Positions 1 to 44,644 of a DNA stretch of 44,644 nucleotides are shown in pieces; position 1 is the first letter of the stretch, and each line of letters opens with the position of its first letter. Below the pieces are notes generated by a model. That model was not told where the DNA came from, searched no databases, and was given only the letters and a program-made list of their open reading frames with translations. A program made the position numbers and the translations under genes. The DNA is from a virus, in IMG/VR virus record IMGVR_UViG_3300045988_101216, one strand, 5' to 3'.

Positions 1-119
1 AACCGCCCACAAAGTGGTTGACCTTAAAACATTAGTGACACATAGAATTGCCACCCTGCTACCGGTCAAAGTTTTGGGGTGGTTTTTCTATGCTTAAAAC
101 ATTATCTGATAAACGTAAA
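1..119. repeat. Terminal direct repeat, copy 1 (identical to 44526-44644)
   Basis: Read directly: bases 1-119 (aaccgcccacaaagtggttg...ctgataaacgtaaa) recur base for base at 44526-44644, giving a unit length of 44525 bp. Confidence 0.95.
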
Positions 120-200
120 AACGAATGTCAGCAATGCCAGAATGAACATGCCAAAGGCCATAAGGTCTTTGAAATCAAAATGATTTCTATTGTTGTTCAT
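102..200 (-). CDS. 32-aa hydrophobic peptide, holin-like toxin (Hol_Tox / type I toxin-like)
   Basis: Manual translation MNNNRNHFDFKDLMAFGMFILALLTFVFTFIR. RBS GGGGGGTGG lies 5 nt upstream. Below the ORF-track size cutoff. Polar N-terminus plus a single TM. Confidence 0.5.
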   Translation of the reverse strand: MNNNRNHFDFKDLMAFGMFILALLTFVFTFIR

Positions 201-269
201 CAGCACCACCCCCCATTCTATGTAAGAATAGAGGTCAGCCACCCTGCAACACGGTTATTCCCTGTTCAT

Positions 270-298
270 ATTCTACCATGCCGCCGCTGTTTCTTCAA
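270..298 (-). promoter_or_regulatory. Sigma-A-type promoter upstream of the toxin peptide
   Basis: Minus strand TTGAAG (298-293), 17 nt spacer, TGgTAGAAT (-10 at 275-270). Confidence 0.4.
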
Positions 299-350: not shown

Positions 351-920
351 TTACTTTTTAATTCCCAGAAGCTCCCTCAATGCTTCTTTCTCTTCTTCGC
401 TTCTCTCCGCTTTTCTTACTTTGAGATCAACGAGCTTTTTATTGCTCTGGTAAAACTCTTTTTCCCACTTTTCTAATTTTTTTCCTTTGCTTTTTTTATT
501 TCTTATGTTAATAACTTGGGAATATAATCCTTCGCCTATTTCCATGTATAGGCTCATAAATGTCCACCAATGCAAGTAGGGTATACTTCTGATCTCTCTT
601 CCAGCAACCTTGTTAATTGCAGGAATTAATATAGGAGCGTCTTGATTCCAATCCATTAACTTATGTGCTTTTCTCTTCTTAGAATCTTCAAAACTATAAT
701 CTATAAATTCGATAGCTTTGTCACACGCTTCTCTTAAACAACCAATATGAATTTTATCCTTATAAAATATTTTAAGCATAATCATAGTCTTTTCTTGGTC
801 ATTAAACTGAGAATCGTTATATGCCGACAATATATCTAATATAGCTCTGAAATCACTCCTTATTGCACATTCTTGTCCGTTTATACAAATAGATTGTGGT
901 AAGGACCATACATCAATCAT
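351..920 (-). CDS. Gp15-like tail assembly protein (Listeria A118 Gp15 family)
   Basis: ORF track. N-terminus ICINGQECAIRSDFRAILDIL...DQEK matches the remembered Phage_Gp15 pattern. Position is between the tail chaperone and the tape measure. Confidence 0.7.
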   Translation of the reverse strand: MIDVWSLPQSICINGQECAIRSDFRAILDILSAYNDSQFNDQEKTMIMLKIFYKDKIHIGCLREACDKAIEFIDYSFEDSKKRKAHKLMDWNQDAPILIPAINKVAGREIRSIPYLHWWTFMSLYMEIGEGLYSQVINIRNKKSKGKKLEKWEKEFYQSNKKLVDLKVRKAERSEEEKEALRELLGIKK

Positions 921-1394: not shown

Positions 1395-1949
1395 TTAGAC
1401 GCCAAGGCCCTCCGTCTCTTTTTCTAACTTCAGCATAGACGGATCAGGAATTTCACCCTCTGTAAATTCTGGGTTCCCTGTTTTTAACGATGTAGCAGAT
1501 ACATATCCTTTAGTTCTTGCTCCATCTTCTGATACCTGAAATGGAATATTCAATCCCGCTGTATCCCCACCATAACTTTGCGGTTTAACAATGACTTCCT
1601 GCACATACGCCAGATGATTTGTGGCCTCCGTATCTTCCACAATAACTTCTAACATAAGAGTTTTACAGGAATCCCCTTTTAAACGATCAAAAGCAATTTC
1701 TCTGATTTTCGGGTAAAGTTTCTTCGCAGGGTCTGCATAAAATGGGTCGGCATCCATTGTCGGCTCATAACCATTATCCTTTGTTTTCGTCTGACCCAGG
1801 ATGTTTTTCAATGTTTCCATATCCGGGTTAAGTTCATTAGACATTTCTTCGATGTCATCACCAATAATTTCCCACTCTGCACTTTCAGCAACATTCTTAA
1901 AAGATGTATCAAGATAGTGCGCCAGTGCTTCACGATTTAACTTTGCCAT
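1395..1949 (-). CDS. Major tail protein
   Basis: ORF track, 184 aa. Canonical position directly upstream of the chaperone pair and tape measure. Confidence 0.7.
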   Translation of the reverse strand: MAKLNREALAHYLDTSFKNVAESAEWEIIGDDIEEMSNELNPDMETLKNILGQTKTKDNGYEPTMDADPFYADPAKKLYPKIREIAFDRLKGDSCKTLMLEVIVEDTEATNHLAYVQEVIVKPQSYGGDTAGLNIPFQVSEDGARTKGYVSATSLKTGNPEFTEGEIPDPSMLKLEKETEGLGV

Positions 1950-1963
1950 GTCTCTTTTCCTTT

Positions 1964-2482
1964 CTATCTGTTCTTGTAAAATATGTTCCTATATTTCAGT
2001 GCAAGGCTGATAACCCAGTCCTGCACATTTCCCTCTGATGTGCTGTCCAGATATGCCGGGGTCTGCCGCGCGATCTCTGTGATTTCCCGTCCATCTGTCA
2101 GTGCCGGATAATCTTTCAGCTTCTTCTGTTCTCCATCAATGGTTATCGGCTGTTTTTCAAGCCATTTGCCGAGATTGTCCAGAAACTCCTTAATATCAAT
2201 TTTAGAGTTTTGACTATCTGCTGATGTTCGGTACACCACATAAAACGGATAGTTGCAAAGCTGATTGACTTTTCCGGTAACAGACTTTGTTTCTGTTGCT
2301 ATAACTGCCCCAGATATTGGATAGAATGATATTCCGCTTTCTTCTTCCAGAGTGGAGAACTTAATAGATTCCCCTTCTGTCAGCCCCGGAAAGCTGTTTA
2401 GTAAGTCCTTGATTGCATTTGTCACAACATCATATCCATCTATGTCATATCTTTTCGGTTTATTTAGTGCCTCCTCCGGCAA
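1964..2482 (-). CDS. Tail completion / head-tail joining protein (A118-type minor capsid family)
   Basis: ORF track, 172 aa. Called by synteny between the connector genes and the major tail protein. Confidence 0.55.
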   Translation of the reverse strand: MPEEALNKPKRYDIDGYDVVTNAIKDLLNSFPGLTEGESIKFSTLEEESGISFYPISGAVIATETKSVTGKVNQLCNYPFYVVYRTSADSQNSKIDIKEFLDNLGKWLEKQPITIDGEQKKLKDYPALTDGREITEIARQTPAYLDSTSEGNVQDWVISLALKYRNIFYKNR

Positions 2483-2933
2483 TTCGCTTCACTCCTTTTA
2501 CCCATGCTTTACCGTGCGCGTCTTTTGCTGTATCAAACCAATGCGGTGTAGCTTTTGGATTGCTGTATGTAAGCGGTCGCTCTGTCACAACTTTCTTTGC
2601 TCCTTTTCTCGCCCAGGGTGACCATGTCACAGGGTCAATCATAACTTTACCCTCATACAAAAAACGTCCCATAGGTGGCGCAGCCGCAACAACTTTTCCG
2701 CTTCCTGCCAATGCTGCGCTCTGCAATCTCGTTACATTCACAAAGTTTCCGTCTCTATGCGGCATATACGGCACCATATCCGTCATGATCTGACTATCAA
2801 GATAGTATTGAGCACGTTCATACTGTCGTTCAAAACGATTTAGGCTCACATCAACTCTTATATCTCCCTGCACTAAAGAGAATCCCGGAAAATGAAATGT
2901 CCTACCTGCCATGTCACTTCCCTCCAATCTCAA
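2460..2933 (-). CDS. Head-tail joining protein (minor capsid protein family)
   Basis: ORF track, 157 aa. Called by synteny. Overlaps both neighbours, as is typical of coupled head-tail genes. Confidence 0.55.
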   Translation of the reverse strand: MRLEGSDMAGRTFHFPGFSLVQGDIRVDVSLNRFERQYERAQYYLDSQIMTDMVPYMPHRDGNFVNVTRLQSAALAGSGKVVAAAPPMGRFLYEGKVMIDPVTWSPWARKGAKKVVTERPLTYSNPKATPHWFDTAKDAHGKAWVKGVKRIAGGGTK

Positions 2934-3297
2934 AATGCGGTATTAGCGTATACGGCCCGCCGACTGTTGTTATCAGAAACACATAATCATGCCGCTTGTT
3001 CAGGTAATCGTAAAATCCACCGTCTACACGGTTTGCATAATCGGAATCCAGAATAGGAGCTTCCGCGTATTCCCCTTGCATGAAGAAATCCCCAGAAGCA
3101 AAGGTAATGCTTTCTTCCAGTTCGTCATTTGGTTGTTTCCCCCACTCTTTCGGCGGCAGATATGGCTTGTCTCCTACCATTACGGTGCCGTCAACGGTAT
3201 GGTATTTAACATGCAAATTCGCCGTATCTGCGCTATCCAGACCTGTCTTTGCTACGTTTGCTGCTTTGTCAATAATCAGGTCAACGCCGGAAAGCAC
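2914..3297 (-). CDS. Head-tail joining protein; true N-terminus probably extends to about 3369-3375
   Basis: ORF-track start is a GTG. The frame stays open upstream (IPIYTDTVTIFNKYESQTGDIYWYPH) back to an AAAGGAGGGG RBS, with no canonical start codon in that stretch. Confidence 0.55.
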   Translation of the reverse strand: MLSGVDLIIDKAANVAKTGLDSADTANLHVKYHTVDGTVMVGDKPYLPPKEWGKQPNDELEESITFASGDFFMQGEYAEAPILDSDYANRVDGGFYDYLNKRHDYVFLITTVGGPYTLIPHFEIGGK

Positions 3298-3383
3298 ATG
3301 AGGATACCAATATATATCCCCGGTCTGACTTTCGTATTTGTTAAAAATCGTTACAGTATCGGTATATATCGGTATCCCCTCCT

Positions 3384-14677: not shown

Positions 14678-16309
14678 TTATGCTTGTGTTCCACGTCTCA
14701 TAAATACTGGCTCAAACGCGTATCTGAGAGCGTCTATAATATGGTTATCTGCGTCAGGATAGCCGGAAATAATGTTTCCGTCCTTATCCCGTTCGTATTC
14801 ATATTTTGTCAGTTCGTTATATGCGTTCGGCGTTCTCCTTCGGTCAATAACTATCTTCCTTTTCTGCAACCACTTCATTCCGTAATCCACAGAACCAGGC
14901 CCTTTGATTGCCGCCCGGGAGAATACACCTAAATCTTTGTAATCATTCACGGACTTTTTCTCGGCAGAATCACAGATAATGCAATAATCATTATAGCCTT
15001 TCTCCTTTATCCAGTCCGCTGTTACCGTGTTAGGCTCTTTGTTTGCGTAATGTTCATCTATCAGATAAATAGTTTCTCTCGCATGGTCGTAATATGCTCT
15101 GATAAAAGCATACGGGTCAGGAAACCATCCCCAGTCAACACCCTGGTATATCTTATCCATGTGGGATATTTCTTCGTCCGTGATTTCCTTAAGTTCTAAA
15201 TAATCAAATACGTTGCCGCCGTTACCATTGGCAACACCCTCATATTCGTTTTCATAGGCAGCAGGGTTCACCTTTTTCAGATGTTCAGCTTCGTTTATAA
15301 ATTCTTCGCCCAGCCATTCCTCCGGCACGTCTTTGTATGTGCTTCTTACAACCATTGCATCCGGGTTACTATATTCTGCTTCCTCGACATATTCATTTGC
15401 ATAATTGTTTTTGCTTTTGGGTGGGTTAAAGGATTTAAACCTATAAGCCTTATCTCCGCCGCGAATAGCGGACTGTTGAATACTTCTGATTTCTTCCAGC
15501 CCTGCAAATTGGTCAAATTCTTCAAACCATACTATCCCTATATAGCCAAATTCCGGTTTGATAGATTTAATTTTTAAAGGGTCATCTGCACCGCGGAAAT
15601 ATATCTTCTGCCCTGTGGGTTTATAAATAATCTCAAACGGAGATTTCTTAAACTGAAATCCTTGTTCCAGCTCAAGTGTTGCTATCGCCCATTTCATTTG
15701 TGCATACACGGAATCTTTAATGGTGTTTCCTACTTTACGAAGAATAAGAGCGTGCATGGACGGATTGTTTTTTATCAGTTCCAAGATAATACAGGATATT
15801 CCAGACGATTTTGTTGAACCACGGCCGCCAGGAAGCACATACTCCGAATGGTTTCCTTTGCGAATATCCCTAACCATTGGATGAAAAACATCTGCGATAA
15901 CATCAAGGTCAATGTGGTATGTGCCGCTCTGTCTCGCTTCTTCCAGTGCTTTCTTTTCAGCTTCTTTTTCCTCTTTGATAGTCAGAGCCTTTTCCAAATC
16001 ATTCATGGCTTTTAGCTGGTCTGAAAAATCCGGGGCAAAGCCAAAATCATCTTTTAATTCTCCCTTTGCCAGCTTAGAGCGGCGCTCCTGGATTTCCGTC
16101 AGGCTCATAATATCCCTTTTGGCTTTTTTCTCTATTTCTTGCTGGCGTTCGGCTATATAGTTCAAAATGCTATCATTTGCTATCAATCGTGCGGCATTTG
16201 CATTACTTCCTTTTTTGCGATACCCTGCTTTTCTGTATGCCTCGGCTGCATTTCCACCATTCTTCAGATATTCATCCGCAAAGGCTTTCTGCTTTGGTGT
16301 GAGATTCAT
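14678..16309 (-). CDS. Terminase: small-subunit-like HTH N-domain fused to a PBSX-type large subunit
   Basis: ORF track, 543 aa. The N-terminus MNLTPKQKAFADEYLKNGGNAAEAYRKAGY... is TerS (Terminase_2)-like. The Walker A motif GGRGSTKS appears at about residue 160, followed by a TerL body. Confidence 0.8.
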   Translation of the reverse strand: MNLTPKQKAFADEYLKNGGNAAEAYRKAGYRKKGSNANAARLIANDSILNYIAERQQEIEKKAKRDIMSLTEIQERRSKLAKGELKDDFGFAPDFSDQLKAMNDLEKALTIKEEKEAEKKALEEARQSGTYHIDLDVIADVFHPMVRDIRKGNHSEYVLPGGRGSTKSSGISCIILELIKNNPSMHALILRKVGNTIKDSVYAQMKWAIATLELEQGFQFKKSPFEIIYKPTGQKIYFRGADDPLKIKSIKPEFGYIGIVWFEEFDQFAGLEEIRSIQQSAIRGGDKAYRFKSFNPPKSKNNYANEYVEEAEYSNPDAMVVRSTYKDVPEEWLGEEFINEAEHLKKVNPAAYENEYEGVANGNGGNVFDYLELKEITDEEISHMDKIYQGVDWGWFPDPYAFIRAYYDHARETIYLIDEHYANKEPNTVTADWIKEKGYNDYCIICDSAEKKSVNDYKDLGVFSRAAIKGPGSVDYGMKWLQKRKIVIDRRRTPNAYNELTKYEYERDKDGNIISGYPDADNHIIDALRYAFEPVFMRRGTQA

Positions 16310-28359: not shown

Positions 28360-28739
28360 TGATGTGCCTATTGGCAAAAGAAAGGCTGGTGGATATGTTA
28401 ACCAAACTTTTGAATTTGCCTGCTCCCTTAATCTAAGGTTGCCATAGTGGAACCAAAGCACTTAAAACTGGTCAAAGGTAATTACTGATACAGCGTTACG
28501 CAACTCAGAGAAGGAGTATAAAACGCATGGCTGGCCGCCTAACGGCTTCACTGTATCGTGTATTCCTTTTGTCTTGCCAGCGATTAGGCATATCGCAGAA
28601 CCATAACTGCAAAAGTGGCAAGGTACTTGATAGAAGCACTTGGCTCTATCGAGTGTGGTGAAAACCTGCAAAGTACATAGGGTAAACAAATTTGGCATAG
28701 AGCCGTTCGAGATAGAGCCTCGGACGGTTTCTTTGATTT
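28360..28739 (+). ncRNA. Candidate structured noncoding RNA in the immunity intergenic region
   Basis: No credible ORF. Helices: 28573-28579/28616-28622, 28580-28584/28592-28596 and 28629-28634/28645-28650. Terminator hairpin 28703-28711/28719-28727 plus a T-run. Possible promoter TTGTAT-17-TATAAT near 28328-28356. Confidence 0.35.
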
Positions 28740-28766: not shown

Positions 28767-28923
28767 TTGCGTTTACTTCGGTTTAGTGATATACTTTGTT
28801 TACCGAACGAAATAATTCACTTTTGCAACATTTCACTTTTAAGTATCATCATACATTGCTTAACCGAACTATGCTTATACTATAACGCATTATTTCGGTT
28901 TTGTCAACATGTTTATTTCGTTC
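28767..28923 (+). promoter_or_regulatory. Repressor promoter/operator region with repeated (A/T)ACCGAA half-sites
   Basis: TTGCGT (28767-28772), 17 nt spacer, TGaTATACT (-10 at 28790-28795). TTCGGTT at 28777-28783 and 28895-28901. ACCGAA at 28802-28807 and 28863-28868. ATTTCG at 28892-28897 and 28915-28920. Confidence 0.5.
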
Positions 28924-28953
28924 TTGCAAATTAATTTGAATGGAGATGAATTC

Positions 28954-29574
28954 ATGTATGAAATTTTCAAACGATTGTGTGAGGAACGTGGAATTACTAC
29001 TTATCGTTTTTGCAAAGATACCGGAATAAACGCTTCTACAATCAGCACATGGAAAAAACGGAATACTACTTGCAACCTAAAACTCGCTACAACAATCGCA
29101 GAATATTTCGGAGTATCTGTAGACTATGTAATGACAGGTCAAGAATCTGATATTCCAGCATTATCCAATGTATTTCCTATCGAACTAAAAAGATTTCCCA
29201 TGCTCGGAGAAATAGCTTGCGGAAAGCCGAAATATACAAATGAAGATAGGGAGAGTTACATTATGGCCGGAACAAATATTAATGCTGATTTTTGTTTACG
29301 TGCCTCTGGTGACAGTATGATTAATGCTAGAATTTTAGACGGAGACATTGTTTTTATCAGAAAACAGGACATGGTAGAAAATGGCGAAATTGCCGCAGTT
29401 GTTGTAAATGGTGATGAAGCTACATTGAAAAGAGTATTTTATTATCAGGAACAAGCTCTTTTAATTCTAAGAGCAGAAAATCCAATATATGAAGAAATGC
29501 GTTTTGCAGGGGAAGAACTAAACCAAGTGCACATTTTAGGAAAAGCTGTTGCATTTCAAAGCGACGTGAGATAA
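28954..29574 (+). CDS. CI/LexA-like repressor (XRE HTH + S24 peptidase)
   Basis: ORF track 28909..29574. Start moved to the ATG at 28954 (MYEIFKRLCEERGIT). C-terminal half has RASGDSMINARILDGDIVFIRKQ...ATLKRV. Confidence 0.85.
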   Translation: MYEIFKRLCEERGITTYRFCKDTGINASTISTWKKRNTTCNLKLATTIAEYFGVSVDYVMTGQESDIPALSNVFPIELKRFPMLGEIACGKPKYTNEDRESYIMAGTNINADFCLRASGDSMINARILDGDIVFIRKQDMVENGEIAAVVVNGDEATLKRVFYYQEQALLILRAENPIYEEMRFAGEELNQVHILGKAVAFQSDVR

Positions 29575-29600: not shown

Positions 29601-30101
29601 ATGGAAAAGAAAAAATGTCCTCATTGTGGAATGCCACTTAATAATGGAATATGTGCCTTATGTGGATATAAAGACGGGGACCAGATTCAAAATAATTTCA
29701 GTCATATTCAAAACAACAATTCACATAATGAAGAGAAAGATCAGAAGTATTGTAAGCATTGCGGCCAATTAATAGACAGTGAATGTATTATATGTCCTAA
29801 ATGTGGAAAACAGGTAGAGAGTTTAAAAAGCGATGATAAAAATATCATTATAAATAACTCTGCTTCTTCTTCTGCATCCGCTGTTTCTACTTCACATGTT
29901 AGTATTCCTAGAGTTAAAACATGTAATAAATGGGTTGCTTTCTGTTTATGTCTGTTTTTAGGTTTTTTAGGTGGACACAAGTTCTATGAAGGGAAAATTG
30001 GAATGGCAATATTATATATATTTACTTTAGGTCTATTAGGAATCGGAGTAATAATTGATCTAATATCAATATTGACAAAGCCCAATCCATATTATGTATA
30101 G
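29601..30101 (+). CDS. Double zinc-ribbon plus TM2-domain membrane protein
   Basis: ORF track. CPHCG...CALCG, CKHCG...CPKCG, then WVAFCLCLFLGFLGGHKFYEGKIGMAILYIFTLG (TM2-like). Confidence 0.65.
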   Translation: MEKKKCPHCGMPLNNGICALCGYKDGDQIQNNFSHIQNNNSHNEEKDQKYCKHCGQLIDSECIICPKCGKQVESLKSDDKNIIINNSASSSASAVSTSHVSIPRVKTCNKWVAFCLCLFLGFLGGHKFYEGKIGMAILYIFTLGLLGIGVIIDLISILTKPNPYYV

Positions 30102-30331: not shown

Positions 30332-30460
30332 GCCGCCCTGTATCTTGGTCGGATAGGACGGCTTACTAAGTTCGTTTTAATTCGCCGGAACGGGTAGCTT
30401 GCACCTACCTGTCGGCTGTCTTGTTAAGTATATTATATGTCAAAGCAAACTATTTGTCAA
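30322..30460 (-). ncRNA. Candidate antitoxin sRNA with consensus promoter
   Basis: Minus strand TTGACA (30460-30455), 17 nt spacer, TATAAT (30437-30432). The predicted ~100 nt transcript ends at the shared hairpin, overlapping the toxin 3' end. Confidence 0.5.
30330..30364. terminator. Bidirectional hairpin shared by the toxin mRNA and the convergent sRNA
   Basis: AAGCCGCCCT (30330-30339) pairs with AGGACGGCTT (30355-30364), one mismatch. The T-run on the minus strand is the complement of aaaaataagt at 30321-30330. Confidence 0.55.
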
Positions 30461-30461
30461 A

Positions 30462-30561
30462 CGTAAAAACCGCCCCTGCGCCAACAGGAGCGGCCACATA
30501 TCCGAAGATATGCTATTACTTTGGTCGGTAATATTGTATCATCTTCGGACAGCCCCCGCAA
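30462..30561 (-). ncRNA. Second candidate short minus-strand transcript upstream of int
   Basis: Minus strand TTGCGG (30561-30556), 17 nt spacer, TGaTACAAT (-10 at 30538-30533). Terminator hairpin 30470-30478/30485-30493 followed by TTTTT. Inverted repeat CCGAAGAT/ATCTTCGG at 30502-30509/30541-30548. Confidence 0.3.
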
Positions 30562-30617
30562 GCGGAACACTCGTTCGCGCTGGCTGTTATTTTTATACCC
30601 AAAAGGAGGATGATTTT

Positions 30618-31841
30618 ATGGCAAAAAGGAAAAAACACCCAAATCTCCCTAATGGTTTTGGCAGTATCCGCAAACTATCTGGAAACCGTAATGTCGCTTA
30701 CGCAGTACACCCACCTGTGAAAGACTTCGGCGAAGATGGGAAACCAGTAACCCCCAAAGCTCTATGCTATGTATCTGATTGGTATGTAGGTTTCTCGGTT
30801 CTGATGGCTTACAAGGCTGGTACTTATAAACCAGGGCTAGAAAAAGAGCTGGAAATCATGCGTGCCATGGATGATGGGGACTTACATGGGTTTACTAAAC
30901 GAATCCTTGCAGATTACACTATAGCAGTACGTCCGGTCCAAGAAAATAAGGGTGACATGACTTTTACTCAATTATACGAAAAATACTATACATGGAAATA
31001 TGATGGGAAGAAACAATATTCTGATCAATCCAAAAGGTCCACCAGGGCTGCGTACAAGAACTGTGAAGCCATTCATGGGGAGAAGGTAAAGAATATCACC
31101 TATGAGCAATTACAACGCATTGTAGACGGTTCTGCGCTTAAGCACGCCAGCCTGGAACTGATAGTATCCCTTCTTAAGCAGATGTTTAAATATGCTTTGG
31201 CTCAAAACTTTGTAGAAAAAAATCCTACAGAGCTGCTGCGCATCAATATTCCAGACGATGATGAGCACGGGGTTCCGTTTAGTATCCGAGATATAGAACG
31301 ACTGTGGAATCATGAAGACAATGATATTGCCCAAGTACTCCTAATTATGTGTTATACAGGGTATCGTATCGGAGAATTGAAAGTTATAAAAACTGATCTA
31401 AAAAAATGTTTCTTTTCGGGTGGCTTGAAAACAAGGACAAGTAAAGATCGAATCGTCCCTATCCACTCGGCTATTTACCCGATTGTCAAAAAACGAATAA
31501 GGAAATATGGTGAAATAATGCCTTTATCTGATGTCAAATTCCGAGAGTCTATGAGGACCTACATCAAATCTCTCGGAATCGGAGAACATACACCGCATGA
31601 CTGTCGGCACACTTTCTCAGCCCTTTGCGAAAAATACGAGGTAAAAGAAAATGACCGAAAAAGAATGTTGGGACACAAATTTATGGATGTCACAAATGAA
31701 GTATACGGACATAGGGCACTAGAAGATCTCCGAAAAGAAATCGAGAAAATTCCGTGTCTAAAATGCGTCGAAAATGGAACCTCAAAATCAATTCAAAAAG
31801 AACAAATATTCGAGACAATACAAGACAAGAAAATGGCGTAA
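30618..31841 (+). CDS. int: Tyrosine integrase
   Basis: ORF track 30399..31841. Start moved to the ATG at 30618 (MAKRKKHPNLPNGFG) behind AAAAGGAGGA. C-terminal HDCRHTF...LGH...VYGH catalytic pattern. Confidence 0.9.
   Translation: MAKRKKHPNLPNGFGSIRKLSGNRNVAYAVHPPVKDFGEDGKPVTPKALCYVSDWYVGFSVLMAYKAGTYKPGLEKELEIMRAMDDGDLHGFTKRILADYTIAVRPVQENKGDMTFTQLYEKYYTWKYDGKKQYSDQSKRSTRAAYKNCEAIHGEKVKNITYEQLQRIVDGSALKHASLELIVSLLKQMFKYALAQNFVEKNPTELLRINIPDDDEHGVPFSIRDIERLWNHEDNDIAQVLLIMCYTGYRIGELKVIKTDLKKCFFSGGLKTRTSKDRIVPIHSAIYPIVKKRIRKYGEIMPLSDVKFRESMRTYIKSLGIGEHTPHDCRHTFSALCEKYEVKENDRKRMLGHKFMDVTNEVYGHRALEDLRKEIEKIPCLKCVENGTSKSIQKEQIFETIQDKKMA
31755..31777. repeat. Direct repeat A (TGTCTAAAATGCGTCgAAAATgG), inside the int 3' end
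   Basis: Matches 31953-31975 at 21 of 23 positions, by direct reading. Confidence 0.8.
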
Positions 31842-32066: not shown

Positions 32067-33899
32067 TCATACTTTTTTAATACTATCCGCCCAAGCATAC
32101 CCTATGTACTGATCGGCCACACAGACCTTGTACCAGTTGTCCTCATAGCCGTCCCGGCCTAAGACATCCACCAGGTTTCCTTTGGACAATTTCGGATATC
32201 CCGTGATCGCAGGAGAGGCTTTCTTGGCTTTCTCATGGACGGCACAGGTCTTTTGTACTTTACCTACAAAACGTTGGAAGCCTGCCTGAGTGTTTTTCTG
32301 TTTGAACAATTCTGCCTTTATCTTGGCTAAAGTTTTCGGCCCTGCACAGCTGTCAGCATCTAAACCGCAAGCTTTCTGGAATGCTTTTACAGCTGCCTCG
32401 GTATCTGCACCAAAATCTCCATCGGCACCACTCGCACCACAGTCGTAACCTAAATAGATCAGATTGCTTTGCAGTTCTTTTACTTGGCCGCCTTGGTCGC
32501 CCACGCACAAAAAGTCCTTTCCTGCCTGCTGCTCTTTCACCGCAGCCTCAATTTTGCTTTTGGTATCTGGTCCATAAAAACCATCCACAGTAAGACCGTA
32601 CTTCTTTTGCGCTTGTTTTACCGCTGCCTGCGTGTCTTGTCCAAAGCTGCCATCTGCCCCGAATGCGCCAACATCAAAACCCAGGGCAATCAAATTTTGC
32701 TGCATAACTTTCACTTCGGGGCCAGTATCTCCTAGTTGCAAATAATCCCTGACAACGGCCTCGGAAGAATCGGTATAATCAATCCATACATAGCCATCAA
32801 TCCCCGAATAATTCCGGGTGTAGACTTTGTCGGCCACACAGCCTCCGTTTGCCTCTACGTTATTCAACCCACCTTTTGAGGTATTCCCTTCGTTGGTGTA
32901 AATTTGAGTGGAAGTAACTTTCGTCACCCTGCCGATGTGGGCTCCGTTACGGAAGATTACCAGTGCTCCAAGCTTTGGCTCGCTATGCCAGGTTCTTTTG
33001 GATTTTGCATGGTTTTTGATACTGTTGCAGTTGTAGAAACCGCCTCCCATAATCTCTAAAGCCCTGGACAGACCAAAGATTTTTACACAAATCCAGAACT
33101 GGTACACGGCGCACCACGGCTGCCCCTGGCATCCAGGCTGTCCCCAGGCATTTACATCCCGGGCATACTTGGTATAATTCCCATAGCCAGCGTTGCCGGT
33201 CTTGCTGTCTAAATTACTTTCCGATGCTTTTTCCAGATATCCAGACTCCGCCGCCATCAATTCCGCTGTTTTACTCCACAAGTCTTCCGCCACGTTCGTT
33301 TCCTCCTTTTCGCCGTAATAATAGTTCATGTCCACGTTGCCTTGGATTCCTGCAATCCTCCCGCTTCTCGTGTACTGTTGATAGAGACAAGGATAATCTG
33401 GCTCGCCCGTGTAATCTGCCAGCCACAACGGGTACTTGTTCAGGACATCTTGGCGATACCAGTTTGTATAGTAGTCCCCATTAGTGTAAATACCAGTGTT
33501 GTAACCTCTTTTTTTGAAGAAATCGCAAAATGTCTGGGTAAACAGATTGCACTCATTGGGGCCAAGATTCACTCCTTTTTTGGCTGCGTTGGAGACGGTG
33601 TCATACTCAAAGTCCGCCCATACATAGATAGTTTTCGGCAGCCCCGCCTTTTCGATGTTAGCTAGACAGCTTTCCGCCTCTGCGATCACATCCTGGTTAT
33701 TTAAAGCGTATAGGAAATGGTACACGCCATGGATGGGTACCTGGTTATTTTTGCACCCCTCCACGTTCCGGAAAAAGTACTTATCCGCTGCTTTCCGGTA
33801 CCCTTCCCGTAGGATTACAAAATCAATCTGAGACTTTACAGCAGCCCAATCAATGGACGCCTGCCATTCGGATACATCAATTCCTGTTATTTTCGCCAT
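32067..33899 (-). CDS. Endolysin: GH25 muramidase + CHAP + 2x PG_binding_1 + SH3-like
   Basis: ORF track, 610 aa. GIDVSEWQASIDW...GVYHF (GH25). QPWCAVYQFW...GAHIGRV (CHAP Cys/His). Two LxxGDxGxxVKxLQxxL...DGxFGxxTxxAVKxxQ repeats. Confidence 0.9.
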   Translation of the reverse strand: MAKITGIDVSEWQASIDWAAVKSQIDFVILREGYRKAADKYFFRNVEGCKNNQVPIHGVYHFLYALNNQDVIAEAESCLANIEKAGLPKTIYVWADFEYDTVSNAAKKGVNLGPNECNLFTQTFCDFFKKRGYNTGIYTNGDYYTNWYRQDVLNKYPLWLADYTGEPDYPCLYQQYTRSGRIAGIQGNVDMNYYYGEKEETNVAEDLWSKTAELMAAESGYLEKASESNLDSKTGNAGYGNYTKYARDVNAWGQPGCQGQPWCAVYQFWICVKIFGLSRALEIMGGGFYNCNSIKNHAKSKRTWHSEPKLGALVIFRNGAHIGRVTKVTSTQIYTNEGNTSKGGLNNVEANGGCVADKVYTRNYSGIDGYVWIDYTDSSEAVVRDYLQLGDTGPEVKVMQQNLIALGFDVGAFGADGSFGQDTQAAVKQAQKKYGLTVDGFYGPDTKSKIEAAVKEQQAGKDFLCVGDQGGQVKELQSNLIYLGYDCGASGADGDFGADTEAAVKAFQKACGLDADSCAGPKTLAKIKAELFKQKNTQAGFQRFVGKVQKTCAVHEKAKKASPAITGYPKLSKGNLVDVLGRDGYEDNWYKVCVADQYIGYAWADSIKKV

Positions 33900-41402: not shown

Positions 41403-44402
41403 CTATGCAAGTTCAAAAGGATTTTTACCCGTTTGTTGTCTCATCAACTTTGCTTCATCAATTACCAGTTTTGCTAGTTCACGCCGTCCAACTTTCAAAG
41501 CTACCTCATACTTATTTCCGCCGCCAGCAGCTTCTTCCCGGACAATCCGTCTGATTAAGCTCTCAGGAGCCTCGATATTGTTACCATGTTTCTGATCTCC
41601 AAGTACTGCCATAAACTCTTTGTTCGGCGGGATTACTGCTCCTGATGCAAGATAAGGGATAGTCGGAACTCTTGGGAACGATGCTTCATAGCCAATCGTC
41701 ACATCCCCGAACGGTGTAGGTACGTCCCACGGGCCAAACGTAAAAGCATCTTCGGCGCTTGATATTGCATCATTGATAAGTCCAATAGCGCCATTAGCAA
41801 TATCTATAGCGTTGTTTATAATTGATCGAATGGTATCAGCGATTCCGTTAAATATATCCTCAACAGTATTTTTTGCTGCATTAAATTTATCAACGATTGC
41901 ATCTTTTATTCGTTCTGCTTTGCTTGAAATAAAGCTACCAATACTATTCCATACATTTACGGCCTTTGATCTAATACCATCCCATATCTTTCCTGCCTCT
42001 GATTTAAGACTTTTAAATTTTCCAGTAACAGTTGATACTAGTTTGCTTGCTATTTCTTTTGCCTTTTCATACATCCTGTTAAATACATCGGCAAAATAAG
42101 AACCGAGATTGTACCATATCTGTTGCAAGTCATTCCAAAGTCCCACAAAAGCCTCTTTGAAATTTCCTGAAAAAATGTTTTTGACAAATTCCAGAAGTGC
42201 CGATAGCGTATCAACAACAGACGTAATGGCTGTGATAAGTAATCCTATTGCTTCAATAAAAACAGTTCCGATAATATTAACAATAGGAGCTAAAATTGGC
42301 ATAACATTCTCAGCAATCCAAGCAAATACAGGCATCAATGCCTCCTGCCAGACTACCATTAATATTTCAAAGATTTTCCCAAGTAATGTTAAAACAGATT
42401 CCATTAGGGTCCCAACAGGTCCCTCTAAGAGTTCCGATAATTTCTGAGATAAACCATCAAGAACCGGAACAATATAAGTATTGTATCCTTCTAAAAGCTT
42501 TCCGAGTATATCGGATACTCCACTAGAAATTGAATCTATAAAAGGTTTTATACTTTCATCGTAGACACTATTGACTTTATCCCATACACGCTGCACTAAC
42601 TCTTCAAGTGACTGAGTAACTGTCCTTATTGGTTCAAGCGTCTCTAATAACGAATTTTTGATTGCGTCCTTATTTTCTCTAAAAGGTCTTGTGATTCCGT
42701 CTAAAAGGTCTCTTCCTAATTTGGCACCTATCTCTAATAGACCAAAACTGTTTTCTGCAAAAATTCCAATAATATTTCCTGTTATATCTTGTGCAGCCTG
42801 AGAACTAATTACCTCCGAAAAAACTTCTGCAAAGTCTGCCGCAAATCCTCCAGCTAAATCAGAAATTTCGGCACCTATATCAAACAAAGATACTAAATGA
42901 TTTTTTATTCTTTCTTTGTTTTCTGATAAATAGCTCTCAACCCCTCCTACAACATTACTAGCAATAGCCAAGCCAATACTCGTTAAAGAACCTAATACCT
43001 TACCGACATTGTAAACAAAAGAATCAATAAACCGGCTGGCGGCTGCCTGGACATCTGCATCCGTAAAAATATCTTTTAAAGATGCGCCAATAGAAGATAG
43101 ATCTCGTTTAAGCTCGTTTAAAATTGGTTTATAATCCCCAAGTCCATCCCAAAAGCCTTTTTTTAATAGATCTCCAAGCTCTTTTACTCTTGCAATGATT
43201 TTATCTATCAGACTGCTTGTTTCATCTAATACCGTATTCCCTTTTGCTGCTTCTCCAAAGTCAACACCTGCTCCGACAATTCCACCATTGCCGCTTGCTC
43301 CATTCCCTCCGCTCGGAGTTGTCCCTGTTTCTTGGCTCGCAGTTTCCTTGCTCATCCTATTAATATCGTCAAGTGGTGAGAGATAATCTTCGGCGGCTTC
43401 TGTTGCTTCTTGTGTAGCTTCTGCCTGATCTGCTGTTGCGTTTGCGGAGTCCTCTGTGTTCGATGCCATATTGTTAGATGCATTAGACACGCTATTATAT
43501 TCGTCTTCCAAACCGGATAAGTCATTTGTTGCGGATTGTATGGGCTTTGATTCAGTAGCTTTTTTCCCTGTCAGTAATTCCGTGAAAGATTTAAATGCGT
43601 TCGCTGCTGTTGCGATCTTTTCAAGGAAAACGTTAATTGATTTTATAATTGGGGTAAAAAGATTAATCAATCCCTGTCCGATACTAGCTTTGATAGATTG
43701 AAGCTGAAGCTGCATCACACGCATTTGGTTAGCCCACGAATCGCTAGTCCTAATAAAGTCTCCTGAAGCTGCTGAAAGCTGTTCTTGCACAAACGCAAAT
43801 CTAAGGGCAACTTTTTCTTGTTCCGTCATGGCTTGCGTGGTTTTTCCGTATCCGTTTGCTAACGCATATTGGTCTAGAGCGGACTGAGTCATTACAACAC
43901 CCAAATCTTTTAATGTCTCAGTTTCGCCCGTGAATACAGATTTAAGCTTGTAATACGCTTCTTCTTGGCTCAGGTTATAAAAAGATGCAACATCCCCGGC
44001 TAACCCTGTCAATGCGGTAGACATGGAATAAGCTTCTTGTTCCGTGAATCCAAAGCTTTTTGCCATGGCTCCAAAAGTACCTACATATCGCTTTGCCATC
44101 GTCTCTGACAGTCCAAACGACTTTGCCGCATCCTTAGCAAATGTATCTACTTTGTCGGACATACTGGTAAACGTCACGTCCACAACATTTTGTACTTCTT
44201 GCAAATCAGAACCCAACTCTAGGCATTCTTTCCCAAATTCTACAATCTTTCCAACCGCAAAAGCAGTAGCTATTATGCCGCCTATTTTTTTTACAGTGCC
44301 AGACAGCCCTTGCATTTGTGATTTTATATTTTTTGTTCCGTTTGACACTCCATCTGTATCAATTCGTGTATCAATAATAATAGAGCCATCCGCTTGTGCC
44401 AC
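41403..44402 (-). CDS. Tape measure protein
   Basis: ORF track, 999 aa. GTG start behind AAGAGGTGG. Long helical/hydrophobic repeats. Canonical position. Confidence 0.9.
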   Translation of the reverse strand: MAQADGSIIIDTRIDTDGVSNGTKNIKSQMQGLSGTVKKIGGIIATAFAVGKIVEFGKECLELGSDLQEVQNVVDVTFTSMSDKVDTFAKDAAKSFGLSETMAKRYVGTFGAMAKSFGFTEQEAYSMSTALTGLAGDVASFYNLSQEEAYYKLKSVFTGETETLKDLGVVMTQSALDQYALANGYGKTTQAMTEQEKVALRFAFVQEQLSAASGDFIRTSDSWANQMRVMQLQLQSIKASIGQGLINLFTPIIKSINVFLEKIATAANAFKSFTELLTGKKATESKPIQSATNDLSGLEDEYNSVSNASNNMASNTEDSANATADQAEATQEATEAAEDYLSPLDDINRMSKETASQETGTTPSGGNGASGNGGIVGAGVDFGEAAKGNTVLDETSSLIDKIIARVKELGDLLKKGFWDGLGDYKPILNELKRDLSSIGASLKDIFTDADVQAAASRFIDSFVYNVGKVLGSLTSIGLAIASNVVGGVESYLSENKERIKNHLVSLFDIGAEISDLAGGFAADFAEVFSEVISSQAAQDITGNIIGIFAENSFGLLEIGAKLGRDLLDGITRPFRENKDAIKNSLLETLEPIRTVTQSLEELVQRVWDKVNSVYDESIKPFIDSISSGVSDILGKLLEGYNTYIVPVLDGLSQKLSELLEGPVGTLMESVLTLLGKIFEILMVVWQEALMPVFAWIAENVMPILAPIVNIIGTVFIEAIGLLITAITSVVDTLSALLEFVKNIFSGNFKEAFVGLWNDLQQIWYNLGSYFADVFNRMYEKAKEIASKLVSTVTGKFKSLKSEAGKIWDGIRSKAVNVWNSIGSFISSKAERIKDAIVDKFNAAKNTVEDIFNGIADTIRSIINNAIDIANGAIGLINDAISSAEDAFTFGPWDVPTPFGDVTIGYEASFPRVPTIPYLASGAVIPPNKEFMAVLGDQKHGNNIEAPESLIRRIVREEAAGGGNKYEVALKVGRRELAKLVIDEAKLMRQQTGKNPFELA

Positions 44403-44446: not shown

Positions 44447-44481
44447 AAAATAAAAAACTACTAACCGATATTGGCTAGTAG
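44447..44481 (-). terminator. Minus-strand rho-independent terminator just upstream of the tape-measure gene
   Basis: Minus strand CTACTAGCC-aatatc-GGTTAGTAG (44473-44481 / 44458-44466), followed by TTTTTTATTTT. Confidence 0.55.
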
Positions 44482-44483
44482 TC

Positions 44484-44512
44484 TTGAATATTCGTTTAGA
44501 CTGTGCTATATT
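44484..44512 (+). promoter_or_regulatory. Promoter TTGAAT-17-TATATT driving a short plus-strand RNA
   Basis: -35 at 44484-44489, 17 nt spacer, -10 at 44507-44512. Confidence 0.5.
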
Positions 44513-44518
44513 ATAGAA

Positions 44519-44612
44519 AAGGAATAACCGCCCACAAAGTGGTTGACCTTAAAACATTAGTGACACATAGAATTGCCACCCTGCTACCGGTCAAAGTTTT
44601 GGGGTGGTTTTT
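44519..44612 (+). ncRNA. Candidate ~95-nt antitoxin sRNA, antisense to the 3' region of the 102..200 toxin transcript
   Basis: Starts after the 44484-44512 promoter. Ends at CCACCC...GGGTGG-TTTTT (44576-44612, equal to 51-87 in copy 1). Convergent with the toxin peptide gene. Confidence 0.45.
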
Positions 44613-44644
44613 CTATGCTTAAAACATTATCTGATAAACGTAAA
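44526..44644. repeat. Terminal direct repeat, copy 2 (identical to 1-119)
   Basis: Direct reading, as for copy 1. Confidence 0.95.

Follow-up and report, generated by a model that had tools for sequence, protein, structure and literature searches.

We analyzed the 44,644-nucleotide IMG/VR virus record IMGVR_UViG_3300045988_101216 (the window, by which we mean this whole stretch of DNA) and found, between two tail genes of a siphophage, an insert that resembles a type I toxin-antitoxin cassette: a gene for a small hydrophobic peptide and, facing it, a predicted gene for a complementary antisense RNA. The structural genes of this virus lie nearly all on the minus strand. Both ends of the window are identical over 119 bp (positions 1 to 119 equal positions 44526 to 44644), which indicates a circular assembly of 44,525 bp in which the gap that holds the insert spans the junction. 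On one side of the gap is the gene for a Gp15-family tail chaperone (351 to 920, minus strand, stop at 351; Pfam Phage_Gp15 PF06854, E = 9e-22), and on the other is the gene for a 999-amino-acid (aa) tape measure protein (41403 to 44402, minus strand, GTG start at 44402; phrog_1535 "tail length tape measure protein," E = 2.5e-146). The distance between them is exactly 350 + 123 = 473 bp, in agreement with a first-pass annotation of the sequence, which had also called the gap unusually long. A search of IMG/VR with the chaperone protein retrieved 80 loci, and in nearly all of them the chaperone and tape measure genes are separated by 12 to 70 bp.

A scan for open reading frames (ORFs) recovered a 32-aa peptide gene on the minus strand of the gap at positions 102 to 200 (MNNNRNHFDFKDLMAFGMFILALLTFVFTFIR). 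Upstream of it on the same strand is a promoter match (270 to 298) with a -35 element TTGAAG (298 to 293), a 17-nucleotide (nt) spacer, and a TG-extended -10 element TAGAAT (275 to 270), predicting a transcription start near position 263. A second promoter match converges on it from the plus strand (44484 to 44512; TTGAAT-17-TG-n-TATATT), at the expected distance from a predicted antisense small RNA (sRNA) of ~96 nt (44519 to 44612, plus strand) that is complementary to the toxin 3' untranslated region (UTR) throughout. This RNA would start near 44519 and end in a T run at 44608 to 44614, which corresponds to positions 83 to 89 of the first copy of the repeated end. Its predicted intrinsic terminator on the plus strand is a hairpin just past the toxin stop codon that both strands share (42 to 91), and a distal terminator for the toxin strand (44447 to 44485, minus strand; 13-bp stem followed by a U run; -16.1 kcal/mol) was recovered by scan 45 nt upstream of the tape measure start codon. 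The first-pass annotation had proposed the peptide gene, its own promoter, the convergent promoter, a terminated plus-strand RNA of ~95 nt, and the minus-strand terminator in front of the tape measure gene, and each of these was found again. The terms "toxin" and "antitoxin" are used here for roles that we infer. Promoter scans of the window returned 4 matches where 3.5 were expected from shuffled sequences and 4 where 1.6 were expected, numbers that are not above expectation; we judge the promoters and terminators of the cassette to be real because they are conserved in 136 related cassettes, described below, and not because of the scans.

Comparison with relatives indicates that most of the gap is a self-contained insert in the tail operon, as had been proposed. 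In six close relatives (L001 to L003 and L006 to L008; chaperones 88 to 95% identical), the junction between the two tail genes is only 70 bp long, lacks the insert, and reads GAATATTGGCTAGTAGTTTTTTTATTTTAG. A gap of ~470 bp with the same insert was found in another close relative (L004) and in two phages whose chaperone is only 54% identical (L010 and L012); an additional locus (L011) is cut off inside the insert. At the nucleotide level, the insert is 91% identical to that of the window in L004 and 89% identical in the phages with the 54% identical chaperone. Alignment with the empty sites also identified an imperfect direct repeat flanking the insert, with a left copy, ATATTGGCTAGAGTTTT, at 310 to 326 and a right copy, ATATCGGTTAGTAGTTTT, at 44455 to 44472 (both minus strand). 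The empty sites read GAATATTGGCTAGTAGTTTTTTT where the insert has these two repeats, and an empty site looks like the product of a crossover between the left and right copies. The 5' half of the distal terminator stem belongs to the insert, and empty-site relatives keep just the 3' half and the T run; no hairpin is therefore expected in front of their tape measure genes. A spacer conserved among related phages as noncoding tail-operon sequence would have argued against the proposed module, and the relatives show the opposite. Nothing relevant was found among GenBank phages, either with the junction (blastn) or with the peptide (tblastn) as the query.

The same cassette occurs widely outside this operon. 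A degenerate pattern for the peptide core matched 41 IMG/VR contigs, and a looser version matched at least 120 places in bacterial genomes. From these we aligned 136 unique copies, each taken from 175 bp upstream of the pattern start to 270 bp downstream of the stop codon. There are thus at least 136 distinct copies of a ~370-bp cassette in Lachnospiraceae genomes and phages, in varied contexts, and conservation among them runs from the toxin -35 element to the sRNA -35 element, with none beyond those limits. Among the matches listed, the carrier genomes are nearly all Lachnospiraceae (Lacrimispora, Dorea, Blautia, Mediterraneibacter, Faecalicatena, Hungatella, Enterocloster, and Sellimonas), and several of them hold more than one copy. 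An endolysin gene immediately follows the cassette in four independent phage contexts (Amidase_2 twice, Amidase_3, and GH25-ChW); other neighbors include an antirepressor and a transposase, and in the complete genome of Hungatella hathewayi the flanking ORFs look metabolic, as judged by eye from their translations. In phage contigs the cassette tends to be co-oriented with its neighbors (++ 14 versus -- 2), and in bacterial genomes its orientation is unbiased (26 versus 21). Five cassette-bearing contigs (L128, L133, L188, L171, and L193) had been binned as Bacteroides or Phascolarctobacterium metagenome-assembled genomes; since all other carriers are Lachnospiraceae, these are probably binning errors and not true hosts.

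Tandem copies were seen at several of these loci. In Enterocloster aldenensis (L159; NZ_BAABZL010000002.1, ~1700 to 3300), at least five units form an array with a period of ~328 bp, in which each antisense promoter directly adjoins the toxin promoter of the following unit and no distal terminator separates the units. Some units of the array are decaying, with a damaged Shine-Dalgarno (SD) sequence or a frameshifted ORF. Two copies each were found in L208, L144, and L237, and one protein record from NCBI (P0001, 77 aa) is a single called ORF that fuses two tandem peptides through the translated leader of the second unit, a further sign both of tandem duplication and of miscalled annotation at cassette loci. 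Tandem duplication of small intergenic units was a search criterion for type I loci in the work of Fozo et al. (PMC2887945). One contig departs from the common architecture: from promoter through leader to ORF, the toxin gene of L101 (IMGVR_UViG_3300029352_000075) is the same as that of L090, but a different sequence follows immediately after the stop codon, so that L101 has neither an antisense gene nor the 3' arm of the closing helix described below. This could reflect a naturally orphaned toxin or an error of assembly.

The alignment indicates that the peptide ORF is coding and under purifying selection. Between the window and L004, the gene differs at 7 of 99 nt, and six of these changes are synonymous while one replaces arginine with lysine. 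Across the family, the summed entropy at codon positions 1, 2, and 3 is 5.0, 1.6, and 18.0. The ratio of nonsynonymous to synonymous polymorphism (pN/pS) over all codons, 0.078, is biased, since the search pattern itself fixes amino acids; we therefore used the 11 codons outside the pattern, for which pN/pS is 0.27, compared with 0.72 for the same bases read in frame +1, where only 11 sequences are without a stop codon. The window peptide has a polar N terminus, one hydrophobic helix (residues 13 to 31; mean Kyte-Doolittle value, 2.5), and a basic C-terminal residue, as the first-pass description of a hydrophobic peptide would suggest. Family members are 27 to 35 aa long, with a polar N terminus of variable length, an invariant core DFKDL..FG.FI..LLT, and a single hydrophobic helix. 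At 32 aa and with one predicted transmembrane helix, the peptide falls within the size and topology of type I toxins (<60 aa, one such helix). Two other reading frames were considered and rejected: a 46-aa frame with a GTG start, which is destroyed in L004 by a 1-nt indel just upstream of the 32-aa ORF, and a 27-aa plus-strand ORF at 14 to 97, which falls in an indel-rich, variable stretch.

Several searches place the peptide near the holin-like toxins. It had been suggested that the Hol_Tox hidden Markov model (Pfam PF16935) be run on the peptide; the window copy scores 20.0 bits (E = 6e-4), below the gathering cutoff of 23.3 bits, while all 21 aligned family members that were compared match the model (E <= 0.01; best, 5e-7). 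A large-database search, for which the 46-aa upstream-extended reading served as the query, returned 369 clusters, some of them named "Putative Holin-like Toxin (Hol-Tox) [Caudoviricetes sp.]" and one from Eubacterium ramulus; one homologue carries a precomputed PF16935 match, and others are named Hol-Tox in nr. The NCBIfam ComI (competence inhibitor) model gave a weak match (17.8 bits against a cutoff of 55). The Fst Pfam family had no match in the window, a PDB profile search with the peptide family found none, and PADLOC reported none. Fozo et al. assigned the proteins known from annotation as holin-like toxins to the TxpA family, and they detected an RNA of ~110 nt antisense to the 3' UTR of an enterococcal member, EF3263 (PMC2887945). 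A later review noted TxpA-like sequences in Clostridium bolteae, a Lachnospiraceae species. On the strength of that equation and of the C. bolteae sequences, we consider the peptide a likely member of the TxpA family.

Both promoters of the cassette are conserved in the family. The -35 and extended -10 hexamers of the toxin promoter are kept in the 136 cassettes while its spacer varies, and conservation starts exactly at this promoter. On the opposite strand, 120 to 170 nt past the stop codon, ~118 of the 136 cassettes have an antisense promoter with TTGAAT or TTGAAA, a 17-nt spacer, and TATATT or TATAAT; the TG extension is present in 99 of the 136, the spacer sequence is variable, and conservation of the cassette ends there. 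The distance from the -10 element to the end of the T run clusters at 95 to 110 nt, predicting an RNA of ~90 to 105 nt. Its terminator in the window consists of CCACCC (51 to 56) and GGGTGG (77 to 82) followed by TTTTTCT (83 to 89); a simple scan missed it, its loop being long. The hairpin that contains these elements has a predicted energy of -20.3 kcal/mol on the plus strand and -20.1 kcal/mol on the minus strand, shows double-sided changes at 7 of its 11 pairs, and has a loop, ACUUUGACC, that is the most conserved unpaired stretch of the cassette. On the minus strand it is followed by a weak U tract, CAAUUCUA. Across 94 cassettes, the 8 nt after the stem contain 6.0 U residues on the sRNA strand, where the count is constant, versus 4.4 on the toxin strand, where it is variable (3 in the window). 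This difference suggests that the hairpin is a firm stop for the sRNA and a leaky one for the toxin transcript. A complementary antisense RNA gene, the hallmark of a type I system, is thus present at the level of gene structure, with a conserved convergent promoter and a covarying terminator that has a constant U tract. No Rfam family matches the cassette at gathering thresholds, and at E <= 10 there was just one spurious 21-bit match.

The strongest structural signal in the toxin transcript is a helix that would join its two ends. In the RNAalifold consensus of the 136 cassettes, the toxin mRNA pairs its first ~30 nt with the far 3' UTR. In the window, the 5' arm is GGGAAUAACCGUGUUGCAGGGUGGCUGACC (233 to 262, minus strand), and the 3' arm is GGUCAACC-ACUUUGU-GGGCGGUUAUUCC on the toxin strand (1 to 23, minus strand), continuing across the circular junction at 44521 to 44525 (minus strand), where it is complementary to the very start of the antisense RNA. 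Over its 24 pairs, 94.8% of combinations are canonical, and 11 pairs show double-sided changes (155 alignment cells). Sliding the 3' partner by 1 to 3 columns lowered these values to 39 to 55% canonical and 26 to 43 cells, and column shuffles reached at most 91.6% canonical. The compensated versions include GGAACAACCG/CGGTTGTTCC, GGACACCG/CGGTGTCC, GAGCAATCG/CGATTGCTC, and GGAATATCG/CGGTATTCC; the window has GGAATAACCG/CGGTTATTCC, with a compensated U-A pair where most cassettes have C-G. The alignment holds 525 G-U cells at these pairs compared with 51 A-C cells, an excess which argues that the helix is selected on the toxin strand and not as an inverted repeat in DNA or on the opposite transcript. 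In all 109 cassettes tested, the 5' arm pairs with its own 3' UTR, at a mean of -37.8 kcal/mol compared with -19.2 kcal/mol for shuffled arms; the duplex energy in the window is -39.8 kcal/mol. Since the helix uses the far 3' UTR, a functional toxin transcript would have to pass the first hairpin without terminating and continue as far as the distal terminator. In addition, the first ~28 nt of the sRNA are exactly complementary to the 3' strand of the helix.

Two further elements in the toxin mRNA have weaker support than the closing helix. A predicted 5' UTR hairpin, CUCUAUUC-UUACAU-AGAAUGGG (206 to 232, minus strand; H2 of the alignment fold), overlaps the start of the SD sequence GGGGGGUGG (214 to 206) and is 90.8% canonical with two covarying pairs. 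The predicted pairing of the SD sequence and AUG with codons ~15 to 20 (H3) is 94.9% canonical with almost no covariation; here the single-sequence fold pairs the SD sequence with CCACCCC after the stop codon, while the alignment fold prefers the coding region. A possible pairing between a loop and the 3' arm (UUGACC with GGUCAA) shows weak covariation.

These folds bear on the pairing scheme of the first-pass annotation, in which a 10-mer repeat would let the sRNA pair with both ends of the toxin mRNA, as in par/Fst-type loci. The repeat itself exists: the 10-mer GCCACCCTGC, for which 0.05 matches per window are expected by chance, occurs at 50 to 59, as had been reported, and again in the leader at 238 to 247, one base away from the 239 to 248 given originally. 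However, the copy at 50 to 59 is half of the terminator stem, and the leader copy lies inside the 5' arm of the closing helix. In relatives, the repeat is reduced to a 6- to 8-nt GGGTGG core (AGGGTGG), and the longest word common to the leader and the terminator region has a mean length of 7.1 nt within a cassette versus 7.0 nt between unrelated cassettes. We therefore reject the 10-mer as a conserved pairing site: it is specific to the window, and the leader motif forms a covarying helix with the mRNA's own 3' UTR. The pairing scheme built on it does not hold, and the cassette lacks the organization that defines par/Fst-type loci, namely, direct repeats through which the antitoxin can pair with the toxin 5' leader or translation start, besides the shared terminator.

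The organization is instead that of the TxpA/RatA type. The sRNA is predicted to run from ~44519 to ~89, the toxin stop codon is at 102 to 104, and the toxin mRNA would have to reach at least 44521 to form the closing helix, giving an overlap over the 3' UTR. Three known systems, txpA/RatA of the Bacillus subtilis skin element, the enterococcal EF3263 locus, and bsrG/SR4 of the SPbeta prophage, share with the window a small single-helix peptide, which in the window is probably of the Hol-Tox/TxpA kind, convergent genes with an antisense RNA that overlaps the toxin 3' UTR and not the 5' end, and a location in prophage-like elements. The cassette differs from txpA/RatA and bsrG/SR4 in its shorter peptide (27 to 35 aa, compared with 38 to 59 aa) and in its covarying 24-bp 5'-3' closing helix. 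To our knowledge, no such helix has been described for txpA or bsrG. Its antisense RNA (~96 nt) is also shorter than SR4 and RatA, which are 180 to 220 nt long. In hok/sok and in aapA1/IsoA1 of Helicobacter, long-distance 5'-3' pairing closes the full-length toxin mRNA and keeps it inert (PMC5416894). Both resemble the cassette in that the mRNA is closed end to end, by fold-back inhibition in the case of hok/sok, and folding is central to control. However, their peptides are unrelated to that of the cassette, and their antisense RNAs target the 5' region or translation start of an mRNA that is activated by 3' processing, whereas the antisense RNA of the cassette covers the 3' strand of the helix. 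The par system of pAD1 (fst/RNA II) likewise encodes a small hydrophobic peptide and has two convergent transcripts that end at a common hairpin terminator, but it relies on direct repeats at the 5' ends and the translation start, and the sole such repeat of the cassette, the 10-mer, is not conserved. Prophage type I modules of Clostridioides difficile (CD0977.1/RCd11 and others), for which a role in mobile-element retention has been proposed (PMC7699646), have clostridial hosts and a prophage location in common with the cassette; they differ in having longer toxins (34 to 59 aa), another antisense arrangement, and no detectable sequence similarity.

Taken together, the features predict an architecture in which two promoters face each other: one, of the sigma-A type, for a highly structured mRNA that encodes a membrane peptide, and the other for an RNA of ~96 nt that is fully complementary to the 3' UTR of this mRNA. 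Because the virus encodes an integrase (30399 to 31841, plus strand) and a CI-type repressor with an S24 peptidase domain (28909 to 29574, plus strand), we class it as a temperate phage from its gene content, and the cassette reads as a "moron" (an accessory gene under independent promoter control) in the tail operon of a temperate Lachnospiraceae siphophage. We consider it probable that the gap holds a type I toxin-antitoxin-like cassette of ~400 bp, of the Hol-Tox/TxpA kind, that works as follows. In a lysogen, both promoters would be active. The toxin mRNA would be stable but poorly translated, owing to the closed 5'-3' helix, the 5' UTR hairpin, and the pairing of the SD sequence and AUG with coding sequence. 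The sRNA would dock through the conserved terminator loop (GGUCAAAGU against ACUUUGACC); first contact by SR4 is likewise made through the antitoxin's terminator loop (PMC3834814). It would then zip along the 3' UTR, open the closing helix, and displace the 5' arm, and the resulting duplex of ~96 bp would be cut by RNase III, leading to decay of the toxin mRNA as in txpA/RatA and bsrG/SR4, where RNase III-dependent decay is the established outcome (PMC3531473, PMC6563280). If the short-lived RNA were no longer made, for example upon loss of the element, surviving toxin mRNA would be translated and the peptide would damage the membrane. The payoff could be retention of the prophage, exclusion of other phages, or merely persistence of the cassette itself.

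Four observations weigh against this type I reading. The window peptide is below Pfam's Hol_Tox cutoff, and hhalign of the family profile gave weak matches to TxpA and BsrG (26% and 2% probability, respectively). The cassette also places two terminators upstream of the tape measure gene, both of which the phage must read through. Finally, a peptide gene kept without its antisense gene, as in L101, is awkward if the peptide is lethal.

This last case would be easier to accommodate if the peptide were a harmless small membrane protein, such as a ComI-like modulator or an exclusion factor, and the cassette a regulated moron in which the antisense RNA tunes its level. Some predicted type I "toxins," such as YhzE-2, are indeed not toxic when overproduced (PMC2887945), and a weak match to ComI exists, although at 17.8 bits it is far under the cutoff of 55. 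However, loci that pay a price for leaky expression typically show such an elaborate, covarying mRNA structure and such a complete antisense overlap, and tandem amplification and scattered intergenic spread look selfish. We consider a harmless peptide unlikely.

A role in lysis or another late-phase function, in place of addiction, appears improbable to us as well. Under this explanation, late read-through would produce sense RNA in great excess and repress the convergent antisense promoter, and the peptide, made only at the end of the lytic cycle, would depolarize the membrane and help to trigger or time holin-dependent lysis. The peptide resembles holins in its family name and in having one short transmembrane helix, the cassette immediately precedes endolysin genes in the four phage contexts given above, and it is co-oriented with its neighbors in phage contigs and not in bacterial genomes. 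Co-orientation may, however, merely avoid transcription collisions, and peptides of 27 to 35 aa are far shorter than typical holins. In addition, close relatives of the window phage do without a copy; the window's own lysis region, with its GH25-CHAP endolysin gene (32067 to 33899, minus strand), has none; and many chromosomal copies lie between genes that, by eye, appear metabolic, some of them in tandem arrays with no phage genes nearby. We give a similarly small chance to a more elaborate scheme in which the cassette is a late-phase phage switch, co-oriented in late operons (among tail genes, for example, or just ahead of endolysin genes), where read-through would both supply sense RNA and silence the antitoxin promoter: the membrane-depolarizing peptide would be released only at the end of infection to time lysis or abort a competing infection, and the closing helix would act as a sensor that distinguishes promoter-initiated from read-through transcripts. 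That the gap is ordinary tail-operon spacer or regulatory sequence whose ORF, promoters, and hairpins arose by chance is refuted, despite promoter-like matches in the window that do not exceed shuffle expectation, by the empty junctions in close relatives, the recurrence of the cassette in unrelated contexts with sharp conservation boundaries, the codon-position coding signature, and the covarying helices.

The kind of system to which we assign the cassette is well known, and close homologues are already labeled Hol-Tox in public records. What is new here is the complete definition of the cassette for a Lachnospiraceae subfamily, the unannotated antisense RNA gene, which has no Rfam family, the closing helix supported by covariation in the alignment, and a tail-operon copy for which relatives supply matching empty sites. 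In the literature that we searched, no paper on this Lachnospiraceae subfamily was found, which is weak evidence of absence. We know of no study of type I systems in gut Lachnospiraceae, in which the cassette is widespread. Because Rfam offers no family for the sRNA, and because the peptide usually goes uncalled or is given a wrong start, the locus escapes annotation in the genomes of these bacteria and phages. The window suggests that a type I toxin-antitoxin-like cassette can occupy a phage tail operon while the empty site is kept in relatives, and the comparative data predict, for this Hol-Tox subfamily, where the transcripts start and stop, a kissing-loop contact, and a closing helix that has to be opened by the antisense RNA.

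Other features of the phage genome were noted in passing. At 28573 to 28733 on the plus strand lies a full-length FuFi-1 RNA (Rfam RF02986; 147 bits; gathering score, 59.6), ~175 bp upstream of the CI/S24 repressor gene and on the same strand, and this position at the lysogeny switch may be informative. We know of no function for FuFi-1. Between the repressor and integrase genes, positions 29601 to 30101 (plus strand) encode a 166-aa protein with a zinc ribbon and a TM2 domain, likely a membrane protein expressed in lysogeny. A RAGATH-21 RNA (RF03097, 83 bits) adjoins a tRNA-Ile gene with anticodon TAT within the phage genome (5935 to 6004 and 5759 to 5833, both on the minus strand). Finally, the terminase is encoded by a single ORF of 543 aa (14678 to 16309, minus strand) that matches Terminase_2 (small subunit) over residues 3 to 114 and also Terminase_3 and Terminase_3C (large subunit); the presence of both small- and large-subunit domains in one ORF suggests a fused terminase.

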